Shown here in pieces: positions 12,286 through 23,664 of a DNA stretch of 41,551 bases (position 1 is its first letter; each line of letters opens with the position of its first letter). Under the pieces are notes generated by a model. That model saw nothing but the letters and a program-made list of their open reading frames with translations, had not been told where the DNA came from and ran no database searches. Made by a program: the position numbers and the translations under genes. The DNA is from a virus. The stretch lies in the IMG/VR virus record IMGVR_UViG_3300045988_025400, one strand, 5' to 3'.

Positions 12286-12535
12286 CTTTCACCGCCTTTG
12301 TATCAACTTCGATCAATACCCCCGGTGCCGTGTAAAATCTTGCCGTATCTTCGCCGATTGCGCAAGTAACAATACCGCTTTCATTTTTCATAATTGCGCC
12401 ATTTACCCATTTGGGAATACCCCAAATTTTTCTCAATGTTCCAACAGGTATTAAATCGGGATTTACCACAGTAAATACTTCTATGTGGGAAAACGGAATG
12501 TGTTTATCCAGCTCTTTGATATAAGCACTACTCAT
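12272..12535 (-). CDS. hypothetical protein (87 aa), AT-rich insert in the head module
   Basis: ORF from the track. Visibly lower GC than its neighbours. ATG overlaps the end of the upstream gene. Confidence 0.5.
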   Translation of the reverse strand: MSSAYIKELDKHIPFSHIEVFTVVNPDLIPVGTLRKIWGIPKWVNGAIMKNESGIVTCAIGEDTARFYTAPGVLIEVDTKAVKDEPR

Positions 12536-12935
12536 ACAGCACCTTCATCCTTTCCCGCTGCTCCGGCAGCCCCGCCGCCTTGCTGAACGCCTTGTACTTG
12601 GCGTTCAGGCGTCGCAGTTTGATATTCACTGCCTGTTCTTCGTCTGTCAGCCCTGCGGCGTTGTACGCTGTTTTCTCACGCTTGAGCTTGCGTATGGTGC
12701 GCTCCACCTTGCGCTGCTCCTGCGTGGCTTCGTATGCCGTATAGGTCTTGCCCTCAAACGTACAGCCCAGACCATCGTCAATGTGGGCAAGCTGTTCGTC
12801 TGTGTAAGTGCGCTCACTTACGCCCTCAACAAACGGATAAAATGTATGCCGTACATCGACAGTTTGCCCCGCCAATGCCAGTAACGAAACCATATCCGCA
12901 AGTCTTTTCAAAGTCTGGGTAATCTGCCATAACAT
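12528..12935 (-). CDS. C-terminal fragment of the minor capsid / head-morphogenesis protein (Phage_min_cap2 / SPP1 gp7-like)
   Basis: Carries RHTFYPFVEGVSERTYTDEQLAHID...FEGKTYTAYEATQEQRKVERTIRKLKRE, the conserved C-terminal half of this family. Possible own start at ATG 12935 after AGAAAGGA, or TTG 12962. Confidence 0.75.
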   Translation of the reverse strand: MLWQITQTLKRLADMVSLLALAGQTVDVRHTFYPFVEGVSERTYTDEQLAHIDDGLGCTFEGKTYTAYEATQEQRKVERTIRKLKREKTAYNAAGLTDEEQAVNIKLRRLNAKYKAFSKAAGLPEQRERMKVLYE

Positions 12936-12978
12936 CACATCCTTTCTATCGTAAAGTCGCAAGTGGAATACACTTCTG

Positions 12979-13007
12979 TTGACTGTTATTTGATTATATG
13001 GTATAAT
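12979..13007 (+). promoter_or_regulatory. near-consensus sigma-70-type promoter of the homing endonuclease
   Basis: TTGACT (12979-12984), 17-nt spacer, TATAAT (13002-13007), then AAGAGGTGA RBS and ATG 13027. Confidence 0.65.
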
Positions 13008-13026
13008 TACATTAAGAGGTGATTAT

Positions 13027-13683
13027 ATGAGTAAATTAAACGATTTGACTGGAAAAAGATTTGGGAAATGGCAAGTATTACAAAGAGACGGGAATATTTT
13101 GCCAGTACGTTGGATATGCCGTTGTGATTGCGGCACAATTCGTAGTGTTTCAAGCGTTTCTTTGCGTGGTAGTTCGAAGTCATGCGGGTTGTGTTTACCT
13201 TACAGGGCGAAAAACCCGTTATACTTGCGGAAACATTCAAATCGGCTTTATCACGCATGGTCGGAAATGAAGCGCCGTTGCAATGGGAGATGCACCAATC
13301 ACCAATATTATGGTGATAAAGGCATTTCTTATTGTGAGGAATGGGAAGATTTTGACACTTTTGCAAAATGGTCTATCGAGAATGGCTATCACCCTGGTTT
13401 GGAAATTGACAGAATAAACGGCGACCTTGATTATTCCCCCCATAATTGCAGATGGGTATCTCATAAGAAAAATTCCAGAAACAGAAAAGCCAGGAAAAAT
13501 AATACTACTGGTGTTGCTGGTGTTTATCCAAGATTGCGAAAAGATGGCGTTGTTGTTTATCGCGCATCCATTGCAACAGATAACGGGAAAATCTATTTAG
13601 GAACTTTTTACACCATTGCAGATGCCGCTAAAGCCAGGCGAGAAGCAGAGCTAAAATATTGGGGATTTAACATCGGGGAGTAA
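13027..13683 (+). CDS. HNH homing endonuclease with C-terminal AP2 DNA-binding domain
   Basis: HNH_3-type motif LEIDRINGDLDYSPHNCRWVSHKKNSRN, plus an AP2-like region GVAGVYPRLRKDGVVVYRASIATDNGKIYLGTFYTIADAAKARREAELKYWG. Confidence 0.9.
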   Translation: MSKLNDLTGKRFGKWQVLQRDGNILPVRWICRCDCGTIRSVSSVSLRGSSKSCGLCLPYRAKNPLYLRKHSNRLYHAWSEMKRRCNGRCTNHQYYGDKGISYCEEWEDFDTFAKWSIENGYHPGLEIDRINGDLDYSPHNCRWVSHKKNSRNRKARKNNTTGVAGVYPRLRKDGVVVYRASIATDNGKIYLGTFYTIADAAKARREAELKYWGFNIGE

Positions 13684-13692
13684 TCCTCTATG

Positions 13693-14481
13693 TTATTTTT
13701 TATTCCACCGAAATACACGCCCCTGCCACTTCGTATGCGCTTCCCACCCATTTGGGCCATCTTTATCTCGTGCACCCGCGTGTGCCGATACTTCTACAAG
13801 GTCTGAACCAAGGTATTCCATTGACTGCTCCGCATATTTTTGATTAAGGGCATTTACGCCCGTCATGACAGCCCTGCGCACAGCTACGTCTACATGGTCA
13901 CGGTGTCCGCTCTCATAGTCCACTACCCGCAGGCCGCCGCTTGCAAGCTCCCTAACGGCGTCTTTGATGGCTTGCCCATAAGAAATAGCCCCGCTTTCTA
14001 CTTTCAACGTAGCCGCGTCTAACGCCCACTGGTAAGCCTTTGCCGGGGGGAGCATTGTGCGCCCCGCGTCTACCAAAAAGCCCATTGATGCGGTGATGTT
14101 GCGGAACACGTCCTGCGTCTGCCGTCTGATTGCGTCAATGGTGGTCGCATTCACCAGCACGTCAGGCTGTGTTACACGGGCAAGGTCTATGACCTCGGTG
14201 TAATACTTTTGGTTGCGCTTCACCACATCGTCTATCAGCTCATTCAGCTTTTTTTCGCTGATGCCGGTGGTCTGGCGTATGGCCTTTTCAATCTCTTTCA
14301 GATCGATGCCATGTGCCCGCAGCGCCTTGATGTCCTGCACCGTAATTTCGTTCAGCTCATCCCGCAGCTTGAGCCGGGAGCATATCTCCATCAGAAGTGC
14401 GTCCTCAAGACCACGGTACAGCTCTGCCAGTTCTTCCGGCATGGCATCCAGCAGTTCAGGGGGGAATGGATACTTGCTCAT
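13693..14481 (-). CDS. N-terminal fragment of the minor capsid / head-morphogenesis protein
   Basis: MSKYPFPPELLDAMPEELAELYRGLEDALL... through ...EVSAHAGARDKDGPNGWEAHTKWQGRVF, then 5 AT-rich codons (RWNKK) and a stop 10 nt from the endonuclease stop. ATG 14481 was chosen over TTG 14505. Confidence 0.8.
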   Translation of the reverse strand: MSKYPFPPELLDAMPEELAELYRGLEDALLMEICSRLKLRDELNEITVQDIKALRAHGIDLKEIEKAIRQTTGISEKKLNELIDDVVKRNQKYYTEVIDLARVTQPDVLVNATTIDAIRRQTQDVFRNITASMGFLVDAGRTMLPPAKAYQWALDAATLKVESGAISYGQAIKDAVRELASGGLRVVDYESGHRDHVDVAVRRAVMTGVNALNQKYAEQSMEYLGSDLVEVSAHAGARDKDGPNGWEAHTKWQGRVFRWNKK

Positions 14482-14566
14482 CTTACATGGCCCAAAACTA
14501 CCCAATTAGGGTTTTCATCTGTGCCAATGTTTACCCAAAAAGTACCGGGGTTTTCTCCATAGCCCA

Positions 14567-15970
14567 TTACTCCACCTCCTGTTGCTGCTCCGTGGTCATG
14601 TCTTGCATCTTGGGAAGCGCCGCCTTTGCGGTGGCCTCGTCCTCGTTCATCCAGCGCATACGGAACTCCCAGTCGTTCATGATGCCAGCGTTAAGCAACT
14701 GCACATCGCGGTTAAAGTCCTGCCCCTTGTCTTCAATGATACTGTCATCAAAGTCAATGGAAATTTCAACTTCCTCATCCAGCCCGGCGTTCATAAACTT
14801 ATTTCCCATGCGAAGCAGGGTGCGACACAGCCCTGTGATCGCTTGCTCGAGCAAAATCTCATGCTTTTTAATAGTCCGGAACAATGTGCTGTTTTCGCTG
14901 ATGACTTGCGTAGCCGTTGCAATACTGCCTCGGTCAAATTTGTAATGGTTTTCACCGAATCCGCACTTGCTCGACAAGATGTTCAGCATATCTTGCATAC
15001 CGGTGTTAAACTCCGCTGTGCGCAGCGTCATGTCGACCTGTTGGAGGATGCTGCCATCACTTCCTCTGTCTTCCGGCATAACATAGTATATGGTCTCACG
15101 CTTGTCGAACATAGGGCGCCCGTCAACGCTTTTGATGGCCTCCGGCTGCACCACAATGCGCTTCTTGCCAAGGACAAACTCGTTTACATAGCTGTCGTAT
15201 GTAATATCAACGCCCTTTAACTGGTCGATGGCATACGCAAACACTGCAACGCCCATCGGGTTAAACTCATCGGAATTCGCAATGTTCAGGCGGTCGATAA
15301 TAAACTGCGGCTTGTCGCTCCCTGTGTGAACGACAGGCGGGATCGTTTCAAAGCCCCGCACGCTGGCCAGCGGTACCTCATCTGTGCCGTACAGGTGGTT
15401 TTCAATGTCATACTCGCCGCCGTTCAGCCGATGAACCTGGATGTAAGTGTACTCCGTATCATTAACCCTTTTTGTTGACGCAAAAGCGCACTCTCGAATG
15501 ACTCCGTTATCCCACGTCAGCGGATAGATGTTCCCTGCACTGACATAATTGATTCGAATTCGACCGGCGTCCACAATCTCCGATGTGTCCGGATTGATGC
15601 TCATACCCTCGACCGTGGGGACATAGGCAACAGTTCCTACCGCAGCTTTCCGCTCCTGCGCTTCGTTGGCCTTTACCCACCAATTATTATCTGCAAGGAT
15701 TGCGTCTACAAATTCCTGCTCTCGTTTCCCCTCAAGGGTGATGTTCACACGCTCATTCATCAGCAGGTTTGCCCAGTCCTCGCAGACCTTCTTGCACATG
15801 TTGACAGAATATCTATGGCATTCCAGCTCTTCGATGCCGTTCCACACCGTATAGCTGTGGAAGTCCTTAACATCGCCGTCATACCAAGATCGCCATACAC
15901 CGATCAACGAGTAAAACTTGCTGTCGACCGTATCAAAGCCCAATTCTACTAATGCTCTGCGGATATTCAC
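14567..15970 (-). CDS. portal protein
   Basis: 467 aa immediately after terL. Size and sequence are typical of SPP1/A118-type portals. Confidence 0.9.
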   Translation of the reverse strand: MNIRRALVELGFDTVDSKFYSLIGVWRSWYDGDVKDFHSYTVWNGIEELECHRYSVNMCKKVCEDWANLLMNERVNITLEGKREQEFVDAILADNNWWVKANEAQERKAAVGTVAYVPTVEGMSINPDTSEIVDAGRIRINYVSAGNIYPLTWDNGVIRECAFASTKRVNDTEYTYIQVHRLNGGEYDIENHLYGTDEVPLASVRGFETIPPVVHTGSDKPQFIIDRLNIANSDEFNPMGVAVFAYAIDQLKGVDITYDSYVNEFVLGKKRIVVQPEAIKSVDGRPMFDKRETIYYVMPEDRGSDGSILQQVDMTLRTAEFNTGMQDMLNILSSKCGFGENHYKFDRGSIATATQVISENSTLFRTIKKHEILLEQAITGLCRTLLRMGNKFMNAGLDEEVEISIDFDDSIIEDKGQDFNRDVQLLNAGIMNDWEFRMRWMNEDEATAKAALPKMQDMTTEQQQEVE

Positions 15971-19401: not shown

Positions 19402-19480
19402 TGGTGCAGACAGCAAGATTTGAACTTGCGAACCCGAAAATTCTTCATATCGGAGCTGTATCCACCCAGCTTCTGCCTGC
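19402..19480 (-). tRNA. tRNA-like gene with encoded CCA and a non-canonical 8-nt anticodon loop
   Basis: Minus strand: GCAGGCA GA AGCT GGGTGGATAC AGCT C CGATA TGAAGAAT TTTCG GGTTC GCAAG TTCAAAT CTTGC TGTCTGC A CCA. The acceptor, D and T arms are canonical. The anticodon stem has a U-U mismatch, the loop is 8 nt, and position 8 is G. Confidence 0.55.
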
Positions 19481-21835: not shown

Positions 21836-23664
21836 TCATTCCTCCTCTGGAAAATGTTTCTTCGTCACGGCGATGGGAAACGGCTCGATCTCGCTTGCCC
21901 ACCGCGCCGTGCCTTTACCGTGTATGCGTTCCCAGATCAGCGGGAACCCTGCGATGCCATCAAATAAGCTACCCAGCGTCGCGTCCTCCGGCAAATACCG
22001 CGCCATACGCCGCAGCATCCAGTCCCAGAAGGGCAGGGCGATGGAGTTGCCCAGTGCCTTGTACCGTGGGCTGTCCGCGTCCTTGTGCTTCTTTCCCTTT
22101 TCGTCTGTCCACTCGCCGATGTCCGTCCAGTAGTCAGGGAATCCTTGCAGCCGTTCACATTCCATCGGCGTCAGTCGGCGCACGACCATGTGTGTGATAG
22201 CAAGGTCTGTGCTGTCCTTAAAGTCCCGTTGCTTGCAACTGCTTGCAACCTCGGCGGCGCGGTAATCTCCAAAACCATTCATCTGGTATGTAAGCGGCAC
22301 TTGGTTTCCGCCCGTGCCCATTCTCGCCTGCAATGCTGGGACTTGCTCCCCGCACTCGCGGATGACGTCACAGGCGTGTGTCATGTCCAGCGCCACCACC
22401 GCTATGCCGCCCTGATTTTTGCTTGGGTCTGGATTTGTCGTGTCGAGAGTTTTTGCAATTTCGGTTTCTCGGCAACCACTGTTGGGGTTTTTGCTTTTCA
22501 TGCTGTTGCTGGCGAGACTGTCAAAGCTATACGCGCACAGTACGCTGTCCCGCGCCATACCGCCGTTCTCATTGGCATTCAGACTGTGCCATACGCCATC
22601 CTGATCGTACACTCTTGCGCTCTGCGCGTCCCACGGATTCATGCACATTACCCCGTGGCGGTCGCCGGCGGTCAGCGTGGGGGATGGGTCGCCTTCTTTG
22701 CCGATGCCAAGACCGTTGCCGCTGCCATCGTGGTTGCGGCTCTCTCCGCCGCCCTGCCATCTGGTGGCTTTGTCGTTGATGGGGATAGCCGTTGCAAATA
22801 CGCCATGCGAATGTGCGGCAGAAATGGTGTTCGCCGGGTCACCCGGTTCTCCTACGCCGAATCCTGTTCCGCGCCCTAACGCTTTGCAGCGCGTAGCCAC
22901 CATCAGGTTAATAGGCGTGGGCGTGAAAATCGTCTGATCGTTGCCCGTACCAAGCGTTCCGCTTTTCTCCGTCTGCACTAACGCGCCTTTTCCTCCTCCG
23001 TCACAGCCCCCCCCTGATGCGGACTGCATAAGAAGCACCGCTTTCAGCCGCTCCGGCAGGTCCTTCCCCCGCCGCTCCGCTCTCCGTAATATCCCCAGAC
23101 ACGCTTTCGCGGTCAAACGGTATTTGGGCAGCGGATTCACCTCCAAAATCTGCGACAACCGAGATTCTTCGGCGACGCTGTGGGGTCCCCAGACGGATAA
23201 CATTTCCTGTACGGCTGTCTCGGATGGTTTTTCCCCAGTCTTTAGCGTCGTGAGTTCGCCAAGCGATAGACCACCCATCACCGTCGATGGCTCCTGCTTT
23301 TGTCCATTTCCACTTTTCCGGCAGTCCAGATAGAGAAAATCCTGGTTCTGCGATACGCGCAATTTCTTCCAGCACGGCGTGGAAGTCCCGTCCTCTGTTG
23401 CTGCTGAATGCTCCGACAACGTTCTCCCAAACGAGAAACCGAGGTCGGACCATGTCACCTGTCCGTCCATTCCGTTTTTCCTCCGCTCTCATTTCTTTTA
23501 CGATGCGCACCTGCTCCATAAACAAGCCGCTTCGCGCTCCCGCCAAACCGGCGCGTTTTCCGGCGATGGATAGATCCTGTCTAACAAGGTGAACCACCTG
23601 TAATACACCAAATGGGTTCAATCTCTGCCCCATTTATTTTCGTAATATCGCCTAAATGTTTCAC
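21836..23664 (-). pseudogene. circularly permuted DNA (cytosine-5) methyltransferase interrupted by two frame changes
   Basis: Segment 1 (23584-23664; GTG start after AGGAGGTG): KHLGDITKINGAEIEPIWCITGGSPC, then TAG. Segment 2 (frame +1, from 23579): QDLSIAGKRAGL..FLVWENV..PQRRRRISVVADFGG..RIRGG, ending at the G8 tract. Segment 3 (frame -1, to 21836): CDGGGKGALVQ...RRLTPMECERLQGFPDYW..YKALGNS..., then ATLGSLFDGIAGFPL (motif I) and WASEIEPFPIAVTKKHFPEEE (motif II). Confidence 0.75.

Follow-up and report, generated by a model that had tools for sequence, protein, structure and literature searches.

We analyzed a stretch of viral DNA of 41,551 nucleotides (nt), here called the window, from IMG/VR record IMGVR_UViG_3300045988_025400, a viral contig of 41.7 kb that CheckV rates as 100% complete and that is best explained as the genome of a siphophage of gut Oscillospiraceae. 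In this phage, a gene for a minor capsid (head morphogenesis) protein is split in two by an antisense gene for a predicted HNH homing endonuclease, and the downstream half is itself interrupted by 7 extra nucleotides inside its most conserved motif. Such gaps are conserved among relatives and strictly tied to endonuclease genes at the junction of the two halves, and the coding sequence on both sides of the gap is under purifying selection, in two different frames. On comparison with related alleles, we lean, if only slightly, toward reading positions 12829-13876 as a mobile homing-endonuclease cassette of the MobA/gene 39-gene 60 type known from phage T4, with a gap that would be hopped by translating ribosomes. 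The features involved are collected in Table 1.

When intact homologous proteins were compared with the window by tblastn, three segments were recovered, the third of which, YPDFEKTCGYGFVTGIGGANCR, lies in a frame other than that of the C-terminal open reading frame (C ORF) given in the initial annotation of this DNA. That annotation had placed the start of the C-terminal fragment near 12935, which, by tblastn and comparison with intact homologues, is the wrong frame for the first 26 to 35 residues: the MLWQITQTLKRLADMVSLLALAGQTVDV reported for this fragment is an out-of-frame reading of the most conserved block of the family, YPDFEKTCGYGFVTGIGGANCR, and the reported ...LALAGQTVDV is an out-of-frame reading of GIGGANCR. 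The ribosome-binding site (RBS) described for the C half does exist, but the ATG in the correct frame, 9 nt on from it, is at 12930 and not at 12935. The segment read from this ATG, MADYPDFEKTCGYGFVTGIGGANCR, is the cassette's own replacement copy of the most conserved block. It is separated by 7 extra bases from the codons for HTFYPFVEGV..., a net gain over all intact homologues that lies between the NCR codons and the VEG codons (TGT CGA|TGTA CGG|CAT; the junction CGA|TGTA CGG|CAT spans 12858-12846). Read-through in the zero frame would append CTAYILSVC, reach a TGA at 12828-12826 and end in a product of 34 amino acids (aa). The DNA from about 12815 downstream is 98-100% identical to intact alleles. 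Thus, it is because a conserved 7-nt gap sits inside the invariant NC(R)H motif that the C ORF as annotated starts in the wrong frame.

The identity of the host gene is clear for both halves. The longest N-terminal ORF (N ORF) runs from 13693 to 14505 on the minus strand, with a TTG start at 14505 and 270 aa, and matches positions 3-245 of the 366 positions of Pfam PF06152 (Phage_min_cap2; E=1e-51); a match to the PHROG 581 minor head protein (E=6e-55) agrees with this assignment. The C ORF (12528..12962) matches positions 276-364 of the same Pfam family (E=3e-21). The proposal that the two fragments together rebuild one protein is incomplete, as the C half is itself broken by the 7-nt gap. 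The N ORF ends, as had been described, in a few AT-rich codons and a stop at 13693 (...WQGRVF, RWNKK, TAA), and short tails of this kind (RWNKK, RWNKQV, HWNKHV, RWKR, EWKK) are found across all split alleles. The unsplit alleles L196 and L231 (loci compared in this work carry L numbers) read WQGKIYHWSAKGNKNRGK-YPDFE and WQGKVYRWAAKPKASNGK-YPDFE, respectively, at the linker. When unsplit homologues are aligned, the gene is seen to be split within a linker rich in indels, between WQGK(V/I)(Y/F) and YP, and the block that follows, YP..G.G.V.G..G.NC.H, is the most conserved part of the family, with columns that are invariant among unsplit homologues of 32-96% identity. A sequence search of the PDB with an intact homologue protein gave no match, and a structure predicted for an intact homologue from a 12-sequence alignment was unusable, with a predicted local distance difference test score (pLDDT) of 58, a predicted template modeling score (pTM) of 0.31 and values below 50 in the split and gap region.

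Since uninterrupted alleles are found in both GenBank and IMG/VR, the interruption is a presence/absence polymorphism, and the gene is normally intact in the nearest relatives. Three GenBank gut-phage contigs carry a single uninterrupted gene of 392-508 aa that is about 70% identical, and of the 80 IMG/VR relatives that best match the N half, about 72 have the N, middle and C parts contiguous in one frame. These are the empty sites for which the initial annotation had suggested a search, and the endonuclease likewise recurs: the same antisense HNH gene lies at the same site in five other contigs (L005-L008 and L018), where it is 97-99% identical, and in contig 007021, and over all contigs with a copy at this site the identity is 97-100%. 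Set against 73 loci with intact alleles, the tract 12829-13876 gave no high-identity alignment, but the DNA outside it is 98-100% identical to intact alleles. Conversely, the tract is 97-100% identical in L005, L006, L008 and L018, while outside it the portal genes of these four loci are 68-77%, the bodies of their N halves 83-92% and the cores of their C halves 81-99% identical. From this contrast between tract and flanks, the moving unit starts within the N ORF, of which it takes the last ~184 nt, and goes on through the HNH gene, the signals for restart and the replacement block to the gap and some 7 codons past it. The cassette spreads horizontally between otherwise diverged phage backgrounds. 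Two features of a free-standing HNH homing endonuclease are seen here, namely, polymorphic presence at a single site and stronger conservation of the cassette than of the flanks; cleavage of an endonuclease-free allele and copying into it would be the predicted function of the HNH gene. The initial annotation would have abandoned the split if homologues carried the two ORFs as normally separate genes. In a wide clade of relatives the two halves are indeed separate genes, sometimes without an endonuclease or with other cargo between them, but the nearest relatives mostly have one uninterrupted gene.

The 7-nt gap is one of a family of inserts at the same motif. We scanned viral contigs, species-representative genomes and metagenome contigs with a degenerate DNA pattern for the YPDFE-type block, which matched 16, 11 and 45 loci, respectively; the genome matches are metagenome-assembled genomes, mostly labelled Oscillospiraceae, Oscillibacter or Clostridia, from rabbit, mouse and other gut samples. 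Among related phages and Oscillospiraceae prophages, 16 different inserts of 4 to 8 nt occur at this one motif. Six add 6 nt at an Arg codon (CGA TAG CGA, CGA TAG CGC, CGA TAG CGT, CGC TAG CGT, CGG TAG CGT and CGG TAG TGG), and another adds 6 nt at a His codon (CAT TAG CAC). Five add 5 nt at an Ala codon (GCT TA GCA, GCA TA GCT, GCC TA GCT, GCA TA GTT and GCT TA GTT), and one adds 4 nt (CAC CGA T AGC in L183, with TAG in frame). The remaining three, again at an Arg codon, are free of stops: the window form CGA TGTA CGG (+7, 14 loci), CGA TGTC CGG (+7) and CGA TGTAA CGG (+8). TAG is thus present in 13 of the 16 forms, and the inserts of 5 to 8 nt follow a common design, namely, a codon, usually a TAG, and a synonymous copy of the codon, with the G of TAG serving also as the first base of the landing codon in the Ala forms. 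When the +4 form, which lacks a codon pair, is set aside, proposed take-off and landing codons share their first two bases in 13 of 15 forms and two of three bases in the other two; the window pair, CGA...CGG, has two of three bases in common. With lengths of 4, 5, 6, 7 and 8 nt, the inserts create three frame relations between the flanking segments. Exact deletion of the insert restored a full open C half ending in MKVLY in all 15 alleles tested, which represent 7 insert forms.

The gap string of the window, CGATGTACGG (10 nt), is identical in 14 loci with 11 distinct alleles and in several genetic contexts, and its sister strings are CGATGTCCGG (+7) and CGATGTAACGG (+8). As the 14 loci come from IMG/VR, GTDB metagenome-assembled genomes and ENA assemblies, an assembly or sequencing error as the origin of the 7 nt is ruled out. 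In the +7 and +8 forms, the two codons that border the gap may be brought together by a small hairpin. Its stem, UG(U/C)CG-loop-CGGCA, is kept in all of these forms, each of which has CGG, the codon needed for the stem, at the landing position, and it pairs perfectly (UGCCG/CGGCA) in sister alleles. Over the window and sister sequences folded, hairpin z-scores were -0.75 to -2.2, and in L197, L211 and L192, with z-scores of -1.5 to -2.2, the hairpin is part of the minimum-free-energy fold. The codon that follows the take-off codon, UGU, was the least used of the sense codons counted in five late genes, with 5 occurrences in 1670 codons against 9 for CGA, a count that is only a proxy for slow decoding.

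Inserts and endonucleases go together. Every one of the 34 loci whose junction holds an HNH gene has an insert, and these HNH genes belong to at least five lineages, are 37-100% identical and lie in sense or antisense orientation; none of the 7 unsplit alleles has an insert. Three types of split allele without an endonuclease (L178/L213/L217, L185 and L187) have kept theirs. Because the loci are phylogenetically non-independent, we treat this association as suggestive rather than as a statistical test. Separately, alleles that lack a gap (L181, L190/L204, L231, L180) often have AGG for the Arg of the motif instead of CGN, a two-base synonymous change that might be an alternative escape from the endonuclease.

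Both sides of the gap bear the mark of translation. In nine diverse gap-bearing alleles, the ratio of nonsynonymous to synonymous polymorphism (pN/pS) of the segment before the gap is 0.145 when read in the MADYPDFE frame but exceeds 2.6 in either of the others; for the 11 cassette-specific codons right after the gap, it is 0.27 in the resumed frame. In the class defined by CGATGTACGG, with 11 distinct alleles, pN/pS is 0.15 upstream (pS 0.29) and 0.26 downstream (pS 0.54) of the gap, and values in other classes sharing the same insert range from 0.00 to 0.46. As purifying selection acts on each side in its own frame, both sides would be translated, and these frames are joined only if the insert is skipped.

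These data bear directly on an alternative, a plain split into two polypeptides that involves no recoding, which is how the layout had first been read. Here the C half would start at ATG 12935 or TTG 12962 and yield 135-144 aa with an unrelated N terminus that lacks the YP..G.G.V.G..G.NC block. Such a product is conceivable in the window and in L167, where this frame stays open over the 57 codons that precede the gap and an ATG follows 4 nt after AGAAAGGA, and the sole substitution between the window and L018 in the overlapped segment is synonymous in the C-ORF frame. We nevertheless judge this explanation unlikely. The overlapped segment is constrained in the other frame and not in this one (0.145 against >2.6, with 0.15 in the same-gap class), and the product would miss the only block that is invariant across the homologues. 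Moreover, in six other +7/+8 alleles (L185, L189, L192, L197, L211 and L229) the landing frame is closed 0 to 10 codons upstream, leaving no usable start, so independent initiation is neither a conserved nor a general solution.

Alternatively, the gap might be a repair scar or an immunity mutation, with a C half truncated after 34 aa, a downstream domain that is dispensable or dead, and apparent conservation that stems from recent recombination with intact alleles. The alleles are mosaic, the C core of the window being 98-100% identical to intact alleles, and truncated or deleted remnants do exist in prophages (L184, L188); the analogous protein of phage SPP1, gp7, is not known to be strictly essential, which also counts in favor of a scar. 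Against this, the same 10-nt string recurs in 11 distinct alleles whose flanking synonymous sites differ by 29-54%, and the codons that follow the gap and are specific to the cassette are constrained. Random scars would also not produce 16 insert forms of which those of 5 to 8 nt share a codon-(TAG)-synonymous-codon design at three different codons. With the genome complete by CheckV and the same allele present in several independent assemblies, we regard a scar as improbable.

A further possibility is that recoding takes place by a route other than a hop: a +1 frameshift at CGA UGU A|CGG, which would add two residues (...NCRC-RHTF...), or quadruplet decoding of UGUA, with TAG read-through or +1/-1 shifts in the relatives. 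The 7 nt do equal two codons plus 1 nt, the +4 form of L183 resembles a shifty stop of the prfB type more than a matched-codon hop, and the same genome has a 4-nt insert, TAGA, in the PCQ motif of a C5-methyltransferase gene (see below). Yet no single direction of shift suits inserts of 4, 5, 6, 7 and 8 nt, one or two residues would be added inside an invariant motif, and there is no slippery codon in the P site. A frameshift or quadruplet mechanism therefore seems to us quite improbable. A phage-encoded amber-suppressor or quadruplet transfer RNA (tRNA) was looked for and ruled out, as ARAGORN found no tRNA gene. The window does hold a tRNA-like element at 19402-19480 on the minus strand that is not called by ARAGORN; its 8-nt anticodon loop, AUGAAGAA, is not complementary to UAG or UGUA, and for this reason no link from the element to the coding gaps was found. 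Reassignment of TAG was rejected as well: the +4, +5, +7 and +8 forms are not accounted for by it, and translation table 11 leaves the other ORFs intact.

The block between the halves largely agrees with its initial description as an AT-rich insert carrying an antisense nuclease gene with a promoter of its own. Its G+C content is 40%, compared to 53-54% in both flanks, and the promoter of the nuclease gene matches the consensus at 11 of 12 positions and has an extended -10 TG. The HNH assignment of the 218-aa ORF is upheld by PHROG 374 ("HNH endonuclease"; E=4e-63) but not by other profiles, as Pfam HNH_3 stays below the cut-off (E=0.01-0.017) and NCBIfam gave no match. The AP2 label that had been attached to it could not be sustained: Pfam searches with the whole protein or with residues 152-218 alone, at E up to 10, found no AP2 domain, NCBIfam had no match, and the resemblance is one by eye only. 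The only structural match, a weak one (E=0.28), is to the HNH motif of I-HmuI (1u3e), whose DH is aligned to DR. All cassette endonucleases have (E/S)IDRI(N/D).. at the DH position of I-HmuI and HNH_3 (positions 13370-13480 of the window, residues ~115-151; also L170 and L176). With an Arg in place of the canonical first His, catalysis by these proteins is perhaps atypical or limited to nicking. The HNH module is flanked by two copies of a 7-bp direct repeat, of which the right one lies inside a 13-nt remnant, AAGTGTATTCCAC, that is the same as in intact alleles (codons K-V-Y-S-T).

Homing endonucleases often ride in introns or inteins, and group I introns are known in structural genes of Firmicutes phages, which would speak for an intervening sequence that is removed from the RNA, being a group I or group II intron, or from the protein, being an intein. 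We consider this extremely unlikely, in agreement with the initial annotation. An Rfam scan of 12300-14700 at E up to 5 returned no intron family and only a chance match to a small nucleolar RNA (E=2.7). The ~30 nt and ~90 nt that lie outside the HNH ORF are too little for an intron core, and the halves have their own stop, RBS and ATG. In some split relatives the halves are separated by unrelated cargo or by nothing at all, and an intein is excluded because the nuclease gene is antisense.

To our knowledge, programmed bypassing has for decades had essentially one bacterial or phage example, gene 60 of phage T4 together with its topoisomerase-gene homologues. A 2022 preprint still terms the gene 60 cassette unique (10.1101/2022.08.31.505936). 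In this system, the MobA element of gene 39/gene 60 joins an HNH homing endonuclease to a 50-nt translational bypass (Manning and Atkins 2022, 10.1101/2022.08.31.505936; Huang 1988 and Bonocora 2011, as cited in PMC5009743). Besides the HNH gene and its tails, the element has a region of homology that replaces the one lost and a bypass cassette by which self-nicking is blocked (10.1101/2022.08.31.505936). The likeness to the window is extensive. In both, a conserved gene is divided into two ORFs by an HNH endonuclease gene, the conserved region lost in this way is made good by a diverged copy that the element brings along, and the cassette is far more conserved than its flanks. In both, a noncoding insert lies early in the downstream ORF, inside highly conserved sequence, between matched take-off and landing codons (proposed ones in the window family), and what follows the take-off codon is a stop or, as in the window, a rare codon that may be slow to decode. 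MobA variants have the bypass wherever the endonuclease occurs, or have lost the endonuclease and kept the bypass, replaced the endonuclease, or kept the split and lost the bypass (10.1101/2022.08.31.505936), and the window family likewise has an insert wherever the endonuclease occurs and includes variants with the endonuclease lost or replaced or the insert lost.

The differences concern scale and setting. The gap is 4 to 8 nt in the window family and 50 nt in T4 gene 60; the target is a minor-capsid gene of Clostridia siphophages rather than a topoisomerase gene of T4-like myophages; and the tails are 5 aa and 2-3 aa, compared to ~44 aa each in T4. We also count the antisense endonuclease with its own promoter as a difference from MobA. 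No sequence similarity to the MobA/gene 60 cassette was found, although no direct comparison was made, and neither a nascent-peptide signal nor an internal Shine-Dalgarno sequence like those of gene 60 was seen here, where bypass is deduced from sequence. We therefore suggest that the cassette works like the T4 MobA/gene 60 element and do not file it as a member of that family. The analogy to T-even phages that had been drawn is right in kind, but, since the C half is interrupted by a conserved 7-nt gap, the closest counterpart is mobA/gene 39-gene 60 and not a plain split like that of nrdA by mobE in Aeromonas phage Aeh1, which the part of the preprint devoted to it describes as a ribonucleotide reductase gene in pieces (10.1101/2022.08.31.505936). 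Aeh1 shares with the window a free-standing HNH endonuclease inside an ORF, and its halves are separate polypeptides that reassemble; no coding gap is described for its downstream half, whereas that of the window needs recoding or an alternative start.

Short hops have a precedent in engineered systems. Synthetic stop-hops and +5/+6 hops in Escherichia coli were reported by Weiss, Dunn, Atkins and Gesteland in 1987; as summarized in PMC5009743, the stop-hops used matched codons around a stop, so that 9 nt were read as one amino acid, at low efficiency. The same 2016 review (Atkins et al.) states that no natural stop-hop was known (PMC5009743), and full-text literature searches gave no publication that describes short stop-hops in nature in connection with homing endonucleases. 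The CGA TAG CGA and CAT TAG CAC of relatives have the layout of a stop-hop, and GCT TA GCA has the geometry of a +5 hop; the window form differs from the synthetic stop-hops in having no stop codon and in spanning 7 nt.

We propose the following model for the cassette. It would supply the last part of the N half, closed by a short tail and a stop codon; the antisense HNH gene and its promoter; a new RBS and the ATG at 12930, followed by the diverged copy of the conserved block (YPDFEK..GGANCR); and the 7-nt gap inside the invariant NC(R)H codons, plus a few codons beyond. The gap, like the 4- to 6-nt TAG versions in relatives, would alter the recognition or cleavage site of the endonuclease and could thereby make carriers immune to their own nuclease. 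Ribosomes that start at 12930 would leave the message at the CGA at 12858-12856, where the rare UGU comes next and the small hairpin may help. The peptidyl-tRNA-Arg would then re-pair at the CGG at 12851-12849, and decoding would resume at CAT. The predicted product is a C polypeptide of 131 aa, MADYPDFEK...GGANCR-HTFYPF...MKVLYE, which would assemble with the separately made N half. A low hop efficiency may be tolerable for a minor head protein.

Several points weigh against this model. Bypassing in this uncultured phage is inferred from comparison only, and the self-immunity step is suggested by the association of inserts with junction HNH genes and builds on a putative endonuclease target site. 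The predicted endonuclease has its first His replaced by Arg, which leaves its activity putative. The +7 form of the window has no stop after the take-off codon; its hairpin is limited to 5 pairs, including a G-U pair, and is absent from the minimum-free-energy fold of the window's sequence; and a tRNA-Arg that bears inosine would, on moving from CGA to CGG, meet a mismatch at the wobble position. Some split alleles (L181, L190/L204, L191, L208 and L214) lack an insert, and in several of them the Arg codon is AGG. The alleles recombine freely, so that part of the purifying signal could have been acquired in uninterrupted alleles, and grouping alleles by identical insert is partly circular as evidence for conservation of that insert. 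Finally, the landing frame that is open 57 codons upstream, with its ATG 4 nt after the RBS, is found in the window's subgroup, where a C protein without the conserved block could be made with no recoding. We rate ribosomal bypass as somewhat more probable for the relatives that carry TAG than for the window allele.

TABLE 1 Positions of the split minor capsid gene, its cassette and their signals in the window
Feature	Position	Strand	Remarks
N half, minor capsid (head morphogenesis) protein	13693..14481	minus	Likely ATG at 14481; 262 aa
Tail of the N ORF, RWNKK and stop	13693..13710	minus	Corresponds to the native linker ...YRW(A/S)AK... of donor-clade unsplit alleles
C ORF of the initial annotation, 144 aa	12528..12962	minus	First 35 codons (26 from ATG 12935) are out-of-frame overlap
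Whole mobile cassette (co-converted tract), ~1.05 kb	12829..13876	minus	Unalignable to intact alleles at high identity
RBS of the C half, AGAAAGGA	12940..12947	minus	9 nt before ATG 12930; 4 nt before ATG 12935
First C-half coding segment, MADYPDFEKTCGYGFVTGIGGANCR	12856..12930	minus	ATG 12930 to proposed take-off codon CGA 12858-12856
7-nt coding gap	12849..12855	minus	TGTA 12855-12852 and proposed landing codon CGG 12851-12849
Second C-half coding segment, HTFYPFVEGVSERTY...MKVLYE	12528..12848	minus	106 aa and stop; +1 frame; PF06152 positions 276-364
Hairpin UGUCG-AUGUA-CGGCA	12847..12861	minus	Joins proposed take-off and landing codons; 5-bp stem
HNH-family homing endonuclease gene (predicted), 218 aa	13027..13683	plus	Antisense to the capsid operon; PHROG 374
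Sigma-70-type promoter of the HNH gene	12979..13007	plus	TTGACT-17-TATAAT, TG before the -10, then RBS AGAGGTGA
7-bp direct repeat AATACAC (coding strand GTGTATT)	12967..12973 and 13712-13718		Flanks the HNH module

Other arrangements of this gene were seen among the relatives. The split junction behaves like a hotspot for insertions: in L230 it holds a DNA methyltransferase with a DPPY motif (a 252-aa ORF that ends 10 nt before the C half), and in L194, L190, L207 and L191 it holds non-HNH cargo in the form of small unknown ORFs of 124-182 aa. In L198 (811-2601, plus strand), the minor-capsid gene is unsplit and lacks a gap, and its start is joined in frame to an HNH ORF in a single ORF of 597 aa, so that the endonuclease lies upstream of the capsid gene and not inside it. 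Long extra C-terminal domains, which bring the total to 508-597 aa and are reminiscent of MuF-type polymorphic-toxin fusions, occur in L003 (2631-4157, minus strand), L020/L170, L191 and L231. Prophage remnants in Oscillibacter and Oscillospiraceae genomes (L184/L193/L200/L203 and L188) have lost the C half from a point directly behind VTG or have it cut off precisely at AAATTGCC|, inside the NC|R codons. A larger element at the NCRH site was considered for L188 and ruled out, this locus being a truncated prophage remnant.

The same phage has a second site of interest. In its C5-methyltransferase gene, at 23577-23586 on the minus strand (...GGT GGT TCA CCT TGT TAG A CAG GAT CTA TCC...), a 4-nt insert, TAGA, stands between the catalytic Cys codon and the Gln codon of the PCQ motif, with TAG in frame, and QDLSIAG resumes in the +1 frame. 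Among the loci compared, this insert was found in the window only. Given that it has the same design as the inserts in the capsid gene, it is a candidate for a second recoding site in the phage.

Taken together, the data allow a broader proposal, which we hold to be about evenly balanced between true and false: that the window belongs to a natural family of 4- to 8-nt hops, comprising stop-hops and a hairpin-assisted, stop-free form, that have evolved repeatedly as self-immunity devices for the homing-endonuclease cassettes of Clostridia phages and may be used again in the C5-methyltransferase of the same phage. A practical consequence is already apparent, as gene callers, like the initial annotation, give an ORF in the wrong frame at the C half. 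The locus series, with 16 natural variants at one motif, five gap lengths, and forms with and without a stop codon and with and without an endonuclease, is experimentally tractable. It could be used to test what ribosomes require for a hop of a few nucleotides, whether untranslated mini-inserts are a general means by which homing endonucleases protect their carriers, and how many of the genes called frameshifted or pseudogenes in phages and metagenomes are in fact recoded. If the proposal is true, bypassing of the gene 60 type would be a general, overlooked decoding strategy rather than a curiosity of T4.

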